A stretch of 64,000 nucleotides of DNA from Escherichia phage vB_EcoM-101112UKE3-1, in the sequence record MZ234013.1; one strand, 5' to 3'. Shown here piece after piece: positions 23,384 to 24,196 of the stretch; the first letter of the stretch is position 1; the number at the start of each line of letters is the position of its first letter. Below the pieces are notes generated by a model. It made no database searches. It was not told where the DNA came from and saw only the letters and a list, made by a program, of their open reading frames with translations. Position numbers and translations under genes: made by a program.

Positions 23384-24196
23384 TTATTCGACCTTCTTAA
23401 ATTTGCAATTGTCAAAATGGTATCTTTTAGCGTGAGACTTATCCATGATTTTAGAACAGTGCGGGCATTTTAATTTTTCTCTGCTATGAGATACACCCGT
23501 GATAACTTTGCATTTATCGCCGTGGTATTTTCCATAATTTCCTACATCACATATAATTCCGCAATGCGGGCAATTTCTCTTTTCGACTTTTGCAAGACCC
23601 TTAGATAGTTTATTTAAATACTTTTCGTATTTTTGGGGGTCACTTTTAAGCTCAGACCAAAAATCTTTCATCTGTTTAGAACATCTTTCTTTATATTCTA
23701 ACATTTCGTTTTCTGATAACGATTCCAAATATTTCACAGAAGCTTTTCGAATATTTGCATTAACTTCTTTTCTCTTTTCATCTGTCCATAAAGATTTAGT
23801 TTTTTTAATGCCTTTTCCGGCTTTTTTAATTCGTTCCTGTTTTAAATTTGGTGATAGATTCGCCCAAAACTTTTTAATTGTTTCTGATCTAATTTTAGAT
23901 GTTTCCTCTTTAATCCATCCGTAATCTTTACTTACAATTCTCTGCTCTTTTGTACCCTTGGAGAATTTTATTAAGGCATAAGCCATTTCAGAATTTCGGT
24001 GTATTTTAAAAAGAAGCTCATGCGCAAAATAGTGTTCTCTTGCTGTCAGTAAAACCCTGTTTTCTCTAGAGTCATCTCCTCCCATGGATTTTGGGACAAT
24101 ATGGTGTGATTCTGTATAATAATCTAATTTTTTCTTATTAAGACCTCTTTTAAGAGATCTTTCTATAAGAGAGTTGTAAATTTTAGTATAATTCAT
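23384..24196 (-). mobile_element. free-standing HNH homing endonuclease (270 aa) inserted between genes 13 and 14
   Basis: N-terminal HNH domain ([13 protein letters not shown]...HHIVPKSMGGDDSRENRVLLTAREHYFAHELL); Cys/His-rich C-terminal Zn-finger region; ATGA overlap with gene 13 stop and abuts gene 14 start. Confidence 0.75.

Follow-up and report, generated by a model that had tools for sequence, protein, structure and literature searches.

The DNA analysed here (hereinafter, the window) is a stretch of 64,000 nucleotides of Escherichia phage vB_EcoM-101112UKE3-1 (MZ234013.1), which represents the structural-gene region of a Tequatrovirus (T4-like). On its minus strand, genes follow one another in the order wac, gene 13, an HNH ORF, gene 14, gene 15, gene 16, and gene 17; the features discussed below are reported in Table 1.

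Table 1. Features of the 13/14 region of the window and, in the last four rows, GIY-YIG genes located at the same junction in other Tevenvirinae genera, with positions within the respective IMG/VR loci.
Feature	Position	Strand	Remarks
Predicted HNH homing endonuclease gene	23384..24196	-	270 codons + TAA, ATG start; PHROG 655, E = 2.7e-52
Gene 13 (neck / head-tail adaptor), upstream neighbour	24193..25122	-	PHROG 211; 98% aa identity to T4 gp13
Gene 14 (neck / head closure), downstream neighbour	22612..23382	-	Pfam T4_neck-protein, E = 1.5e-137
wac	25154-26611	-	Upstream of gene 13
HNH catalytic core, residues 27-59	24020..24118	-	Pfam HNH_4/HNH
Central basic region, five long helices, residues 89-202	23591..23932	-	Presumed DNA-tracking linker
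Zinc finger 1: C209, C212, H225, C229 (CPHCG...YHGDKC)	23510..23572	-	Same motif in T4 MobE
Zinc finger 2: C244, C247, H260, C264 (CPHCS...RYHFDNC)	23405..23467	-	Four ligands invariant, 82 homologues
Downstream junction	23380..23398	-	AAGAAGG, then TAA, T, gene 14 ATG
Recoded gene 13 3' end, 21 nt	24193..24213	-	Travels with the endonuclease gene
Seg-like GIY-YIG gene, 13/14 junction	L031 (VR26) 3927-4562		
Seg-like GIY-YIG gene, 13/14 junction	L039 (ECD7) 4000-4584		
Seg-like GIY-YIG gene, 13/14 junction	L067 355-969		
Seg-like GIY-YIG gene, 13/14 junction	L060 (vB_EcoM_005) 4160-4933		

A preliminary interpretation of the letters and ORFs of the window (the sequence-only reading) had described an ORF of 270 aa that overlaps the stop codon of gene 13, ends 1 nt before gene 14, and has no counterpart at this place in T4. 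The ORF is present as described, and its strand (minus) can be added. Its ATG (24196-24194) and the TGA of gene 13 (24195-24193) overlap as ATGA; at the other end, a single T (23383) separates its TAA (23386-23384) from the ATG of gene 14 (23382-23380), so that the distance of 1 nt is right as a 1-nt spacer. The true start of gene 14, i.e., the ATG at 23382, was fixed by alignment with T4, the ORF listing stretching this gene to a TTG at 23415. In T4 itself (NC_000866), only one base separates the end of gene 13 (94553) from the start of gene 14 (94555), the junction reading 13-TAA-T-ATG-14 with no gene in between.

Once the two junctions are aligned, the insert amounts to exactly 810 nt with respect to T4. 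The old T4-type TAA-T-ATG junction is re-used, the stop codon of the endonuclease gene being the former TAA of gene 13, and gene 13 of the carrier gains a new TGA stop from the ATGA overlap. Moreover, the last codons of the endonuclease gene embed AAGAAGG, a Shine-Dalgarno-like motif for gene 14.

Concerning expression, no late promoter (TATAAATA) was found on the coding strand from 24197 to 31529, a region that includes genes 13, wac, and 12, and no minus-strand terminator was detected. These data suggest that the endonuclease gene is read from a long late transcript and translated by coupling. According to this scheme, the promoterless gene would be transcribed late on a long 12-wac-13-14 message, and its translation would be coupled to that of gene 13 via the ATGA overlap and a Shine-Dalgarno-like motif, GGGAG (24207-24211), which is located 10 nt before the endonuclease ATG. 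A hairpin hiding the ribosome-binding site, as in I-TevI, segB, and Aeh1 mobE, was considered and rejected: a 4-bp CUCC/GGAG stem is possible over GGGAG, but folding of the region is not better than that of shuffled sequences (z = +0.72).

Domain architecture and relatives of the encoded protein

The 270-aa protein matches Pfam HNH_4 with a score of 24.4 bits (cut-off 22) and PHROG 655, labelled "homing endonuclease", which also includes T4 mobE. It was aligned with 81 database homologues (82 sequences including the query), and H31, H32, P35, G40, N46, H55, H59, C244, C247, H260, and C264 resulted invariant in this alignment; as regards the whole HNH core, Y27, E29, H31, H32, P35, G39-G40, N46, H55, and H59 are either invariant or conserved in at least 90% of the 82 homologues. 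The sequence-only reading had recognised an HNH endonuclease with a Cys/His-rich C-terminal domain, and both attributes hold: the HNH residues are intact, not degenerate, and the C-terminal region consists of two C-x2-C-x12-H-x3-C (CCHC) units.

The AlphaFold2 model obtained from the family alignment (mean pLDDT 92) consists of an N-terminal beta-beta-alpha HNH unit (strands 29-32 and 47-50, followed by helix 52-66), five basic helices, and two beta-beta-alpha CCHC fingers. The central helices stand where relatives have NUMOD3 repeats, and lysine and arginine together represent 23% of the whole protein. On the basis of this model, the basic helices and the two fingers may form a modular DNA-binding tail. 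Structural comparisons with the PDB gave weak matches of the expected kinds, i.e., the HNH domains of Cas8-HNH, McrA, and GVE2, C2H2-type fingers, and the STPR DNA-binding helical repeat.

Probing 50,697 phage records by tblastn retrieved, besides near-identical copies, only relatives sharing less than 60% identity, all of them Mob-like or HNH homing endonucleases; these occupy many different loci (e.g., nrdA/B, topoisomerase, and primase). One of the closest known systems is MobE, a free-standing HNH homing endonuclease encoded between nrdA and nrdB of T4 (Wilson & Edgell 2009, PMC2790892), whose gene is promoterless and which introduces an HNH-dependent, strand-specific nick in T2 nrdB, triggering recombinational repair (PMC2790892). 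Aligned with it over 247 columns, along its whole length, the window protein is 33% identical (E = 6e-29). The two proteins have in common an HNH domain at the N-terminus (MNYxKIY...HHIxP...N...LTAREH), basic repeats in the middle, and a CPHCG...H-DKCK finger towards the C-terminus. Both genes are free-standing, promoterless, oriented as their neighbours, and placed between two conserved genes with overlapping stop/start codons. However, the window gene occupies another locus, and hence its target is presumably another one; the protein carries two fingers against a single one in MobE, the degeneration of its central repeats prevents a NUMOD3 match, and no internal terminator was detected in the gene. 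Furthermore, the MobE nick falls about 120 nt inside nrdB (PMC2790892), whereas here the short flanks shared by identical copies (see below) point to a break close to the insertion.

The named Mob protein with the closest N-terminal domain is RB3 MobD (47% identity over 117 aa, E = 5e-32), and the T4 "orf D" (MobD) showed 50% identity to the window protein in the tblastn search; nevertheless, the C-terminal half of MobD is unrelated to that of the window protein, and MobD is uncharacterised. I-HmuI, the HNH nickase of SPO1, and I-TevIII share the two-part design in which an HNH domain is joined to a separate DNA-binding module (PMC2790892 and general knowledge), but they are intron-encoded and absent from the sequence and fold matches obtained here. 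The HNH motif, the similarity to MobE and MobD, and the free-standing position between conserved genes of the same orientation are the marks of the Mob family; judged from its sequence, the protein is demonstrably a Mob-type HNH endonuclease.

Distribution in Tequatrovirus and the recoded end of gene 13

According to a megablast search on Tequatrovirus, the endonuclease gene is harbored by 46 records, compared with 502 for the 3' part of gene 13 (about 9%). The carriers include T6, in which the gene corresponds to T6ORF154; it is missing from T4, T2, RB27, RB32, RB68, and about 91% of Tequatrovirus records.

The flanking regions of the window and 11 other carriers were compared, in gene orientation, with those of 13 non-carriers. 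The insertion lies at the identical nucleotide position in all 12 copies examined. The gene 13 sequence of the window is 99.3% identical to that of U115, which lacks the endonuclease, and only 93-96% identical to those of the other carriers; its gene 14 is 99.4% identical to that of a non-carrier IMG/VR contig. The endonuclease gene, in turn, is 100% identical in the window and in G9062, whose gene 13 sequences share only 94% identity. Hence, on the basis of their flanking genes, carriers are not a clade and are interleaved with non-carriers, which is the pattern predicted by mobility. Of the "lineage-specific mobile insertion" proposed by the sequence-only reading, the mobile and patchy nature stands, and "lineage-specific" is not quite right.

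The endonuclease gene has a synonymous diversity (pS) of 0.068, that is, 2.3-3.3 times lower than those of gene 14 (0.160) and gene 13 (0.227), and a pN/pS of 0.086; these values indicate both a purifying selection and a common ancestor of the copies more recent than that of their flanks. In four phage pairs the copies are identical over 813/813 nt, the first flank mismatch being 4-62 nt away and the third occurring by 36-86 nt. The probability of a 813-nt identity at the divergence level of the flanks is about 8e-19, and the sharing of identical copies by differing backgrounds speaks for very recent transfers.

Not all the copies are intact. The one of SHFML-26 (812 nt) carries a 1-nt deletion that breaks the frame and, once translated, leads to a stop at codon 153; in this phage (L081, locus 2989-3590; 776 of 777 nt matched) the decayed copy appears in the annotation as two "hypothetical proteins". 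In F1/FN the evidence is the match, again of 776 nt, and an annotation that is likewise split. Frameshifted copies of this type fit the decay phase that a homing life cycle predicts. On the whole, the gene exhibits a presence/absence polymorphism at one fixed site and a history discordant with that of its flanks, as expected for a homing gene; presence/absence, low diversity, transfers, and decay together represent the classic signs of a homing element undergoing invasion and decay.

The endonuclease gene does not travel alone. Carriers have GTG GGA GTG TTA GTT GGA TGA at the end of gene 13, non-carriers TTT GGA ATT TTG GTA GGT TAA (T4 form, TTTGGAATTTTGGTAGGTTAA; recoded form, GTGGGAGTGTTAGTTGGATGA). 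Positions 910, 912, 916, 918, 921, 924, 927, and 929 of gene 13 are associated with the presence of the endonuclease with r2 = 1, compared with r2 of at most 0.26 for the other scored polymorphic sites (gene 13, 107 in total; gene 14, 45). These linked substitutions create the GGGAG motif mentioned above and result in F304V and I306V in gp13, in addition to the new TGA stop. Residues 301-308 represent the portal-binding arm of gp13 (PMC12929587). Both changes are hydrophobic-to-hydrophobic, and V304 is natural elsewhere; the gp13 of other genera naturally ends with TGVLVG and a GGATGA overlap, which suggests that the recoded block may be plain donor ancestry. Moreover, the perfect 21-nt linkage has a trivial explanation, since eight mismatches beside an 810-nt heterology leave no room for crossovers. 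Linkage as evidence of an immunity function was, thus, downgraded: proximity alone predicts it, and similar gp13 endings are natural elsewhere. A search of IMG/VR for scars of endonuclease loss with the recoded 17-mer retrieved eight matches, all of them (8/8) unrelated G/T-rich repeats.

Some other observations concern the same genomes. A second polymorphic insertion of the window, at 16773-17417 on the minus strand, lies between gene 18 (17422-19401) and gene 19 (16174-16665). Its ORF, of up to 214 aa, encodes a CxxC...CxxC finger at the N-terminus and, at the C-terminus, an HNH-like motif ("QLDHKVSI...N...N"); it belongs to PHROG 5104 ("unknown function") and has no Pfam match. Only 69 of the 654 matching phage records contain the region in full, and one of the 69 annotates a "19.1 hypothetical protein". 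This ORF is probably another free-standing HNH homing endonuclease missed by annotation. Genes 23 and 24 of the window abut at 10718-10802, leaving no room for segD, which in T4 is located between them (Edgell review table); this implies that the endonuclease complement of the window differs from that of T4 at several sites. Lastly, gene 14 of G9062 (L083, locus about 4790-4900 in gene orientation) contains a 55-bp tandem duplication, and the annotated gp14 is truncated to 185 aa; this points either to a mistake in the assembly or to a deposited genome whose essential gene 14 is defective.

The 13/14 junction in more distant phages

The search of 5.8 billion proteins retrieved only three close homologues (P0002, P0003, and P0004), sharing 52-57% identity with the window protein and having the same length and the same two fingers. 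Their genes are located directly upstream of gene 14 in three divergent T4-like metagenomic contigs (L086, L087, and L088). The end of gene 13 is visible just before the orthologue in L087 and L088, and L086 includes only the last 26 nt of gene 13. In two of the three contigs, gene 13 keeps its own stop codon and a 9-nt spacer precedes the endonuclease ATG. This shows that the element was originally inserted in the very short 13/14 spacer, whose length is normally 0-15 nt (65 IMG/VR T4-like loci).

The same junction is also occupied by GIY-YIG genes, several of which are annotated as "segC", with a patchy distribution in Phi1/ECD7/kvi, VR26/SP18, and MX01/vB_EcoM_005 (Table 1). Like the window gene, those of Phi1/ECD7 (RB49-like), VR26/SP18, and MX01 are free-standing and similarly oriented; however, they belong to an unrelated nuclease family, combining a SegE-type GIY-YIG domain with I-TevI-type DNA-binding domains, and to other phage genera. 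In vB_EcoM_005 the 5' end of gene 14 (the first ~30 codons) is duplicated, one copy being fused to the GIY-YIG gene and the second lying at about 4920; the duplication is a footprint of the insertion. The presence of HNH and GIY-YIG genes at the same spot shows that two nuclease families have repeatedly targeted the 13/14 junction.

Between genes 14 and 15, two distant T4-like phages (L055, 4698-5360; L086, 1621-2217) harbor a further, distinct Mob-like HNH gene. Its product combines a NUMOD3 repeat with only one C-x2-C...HFD-x-C finger, which reads CPHCG...HFDNC in L055 and CPYCK...HFDKC in L086. Thus, L086 harbors endonuclease genes on both sides of gene 14.

Homing, its alternatives, and significance

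From the data reported above, the ORF is likely to be a homing endonuclease gene of the free-standing type, belonging to the Mob (HNH) family of T4; it would be a selfish element inserted in the 1-nt spacer between the essential neck genes 13 and 14. The sequence-only reading had already pointed to the free-standing homing type, and the intact HNH site, the exact insertion, the patchy presence, and the similarity to Mob proteins all agree with it. We regard it as a genuine gene of this kind, probably active.

The following scenario can be depicted. When a carrier and a non-carrier infect the same cell, the enzyme would bind to the 13/14 junction that is still intact in the latter, roughly ...GAYCCTCCATTTGGAATTTTGGTAGGTTAATATGGCTACTTA..., a region encoding the portal-binding arm of gp13 and the start of gp14. 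By analogy with MobE, its action on the empty junction would be HNH-dependent; it would nick or cut within a few tens of nucleotides of the junction. The recombination-dependent repair of T-even phages would then copy from the carrier the 810-nt gene and the adjoining 21-nt recoded end of gene 13. The carrier would be protected, its site being interrupted by the insert and altered in the left half by eight substitutions. That the break lies so close to the insertion point is suggested by the almost complete lack of shared flanks among identical copies; membership of the family does not ensure it, given that the cuts of MobE and SegG fall some way from their own genes. Besides short conversion tracts, the sharp flanks could partly reflect the very high recombination rate of T-even phages.

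A first alternative is that the gene represents a dead or dying passenger, which homed in the past and whose enzyme is now inactive or without susceptible targets, being kept by its linkage to the neck genes. The frameshifted copies of SHFML-26 and, by match and annotation, of F1/FN would fit this possibility, as would the fact that cleavage in vitro could not be demonstrated even for MobE (PMC2790892), the activity of the window enzyme being a prediction. On the other hand, the frame is intact in the window, with all the catalytic residues and zinc ligands in place, the pN/pS indicates a continuing selection on the protein, and copies identical across different backgrounds imply that transfer occurred very recently; we consider, therefore, a passenger unlikely. 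The same purifying selection is compatible with a domesticated nuclease, which would act as a weapon that damages the neck junction of co-infecting relatives, by way of marker exclusion or inter-phage competition, or as a DNA-binding regulator of genes 13 and 14, self-propagation being secondary. The gene is embedded, translationally coupled, in an essential late operon, and the literature reports both homing endonucleases that confer a competitive advantage and the double role of I-TevI as a repressor. Nevertheless, a gene carried by only about 9% of Tequatrovirus records is not needed, no regulatory operator is in evidence, and the enzyme is predicted to do biochemically just what homing requires, so that this explanation, which we judge quite improbable, differs from homing in emphasis more than in mechanism.

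HNH genes of the HK97 type adjoin the terminase and portal genes in many cos phages, and the window gene belongs to a head-completion/packaging block, two genes upstream of the terminase genes 16 and 17. It might thus be supposed to encode an accessory protein of the HK97 type, on which the terminase would depend for packaging DNA. But T4-type headful packaging needs none, T4 and about 91% of the relatives lack the gene, its relatives are Mob endonucleases placed at many unrelated loci, and genes 14 and 15 separate it from gene 16. The distribution and the family of the gene exclude this role, to which we assign hardly any likelihood.

Returning to a homing endonuclease of the Mob family, a more specific hypothesis, possible and on balance doubtful, is that the enzyme recognises the DNA encoding the gp13 arm together with the first codons of gene 14 and cuts about 50 nt or less from the insertion; the block of eight substitutions (F304V, I306V) might be an immunity allele forced on the host, and the 13/14 junction a site of competition between HNH and GIY-YIG nucleases. 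If this were true, the enzyme would differ in its short reach from the distance-acting MobE or SegG, and it would provide a ready-made site-specific nickase, with its landing pad, for the engineering of T-even phages.

The gene is already annotated as "homing endonuclease" or "HNH endonuclease" in many GenBank/RefSeq records; a literature search on the 13/14 endonuclease of the window found no characterisation or dedicated paper. T-even phages are known to abound in genes of this type: T4 has 15 homing-type endonuclease genes, and T6 is tabulated with 11, including three Mob-like and one other HNH (2010, PMC2993671). A known kind of gene in an already catalogued place carries, as such, little weight beyond bookkeeping. 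Its value, a modest one, is that of a clean natural example, with razor-sharp borders and a hitch-hiking recoding of the portal-binding arm of an essential neck protein. Its product might turn out to be the second Mob enzyme whose target can be mapped. The gene would also offer a convenient system for the mapping of Mob target sites, so far mapped for one Mob protein only (MobE), at a junction that two nuclease families have used independently.
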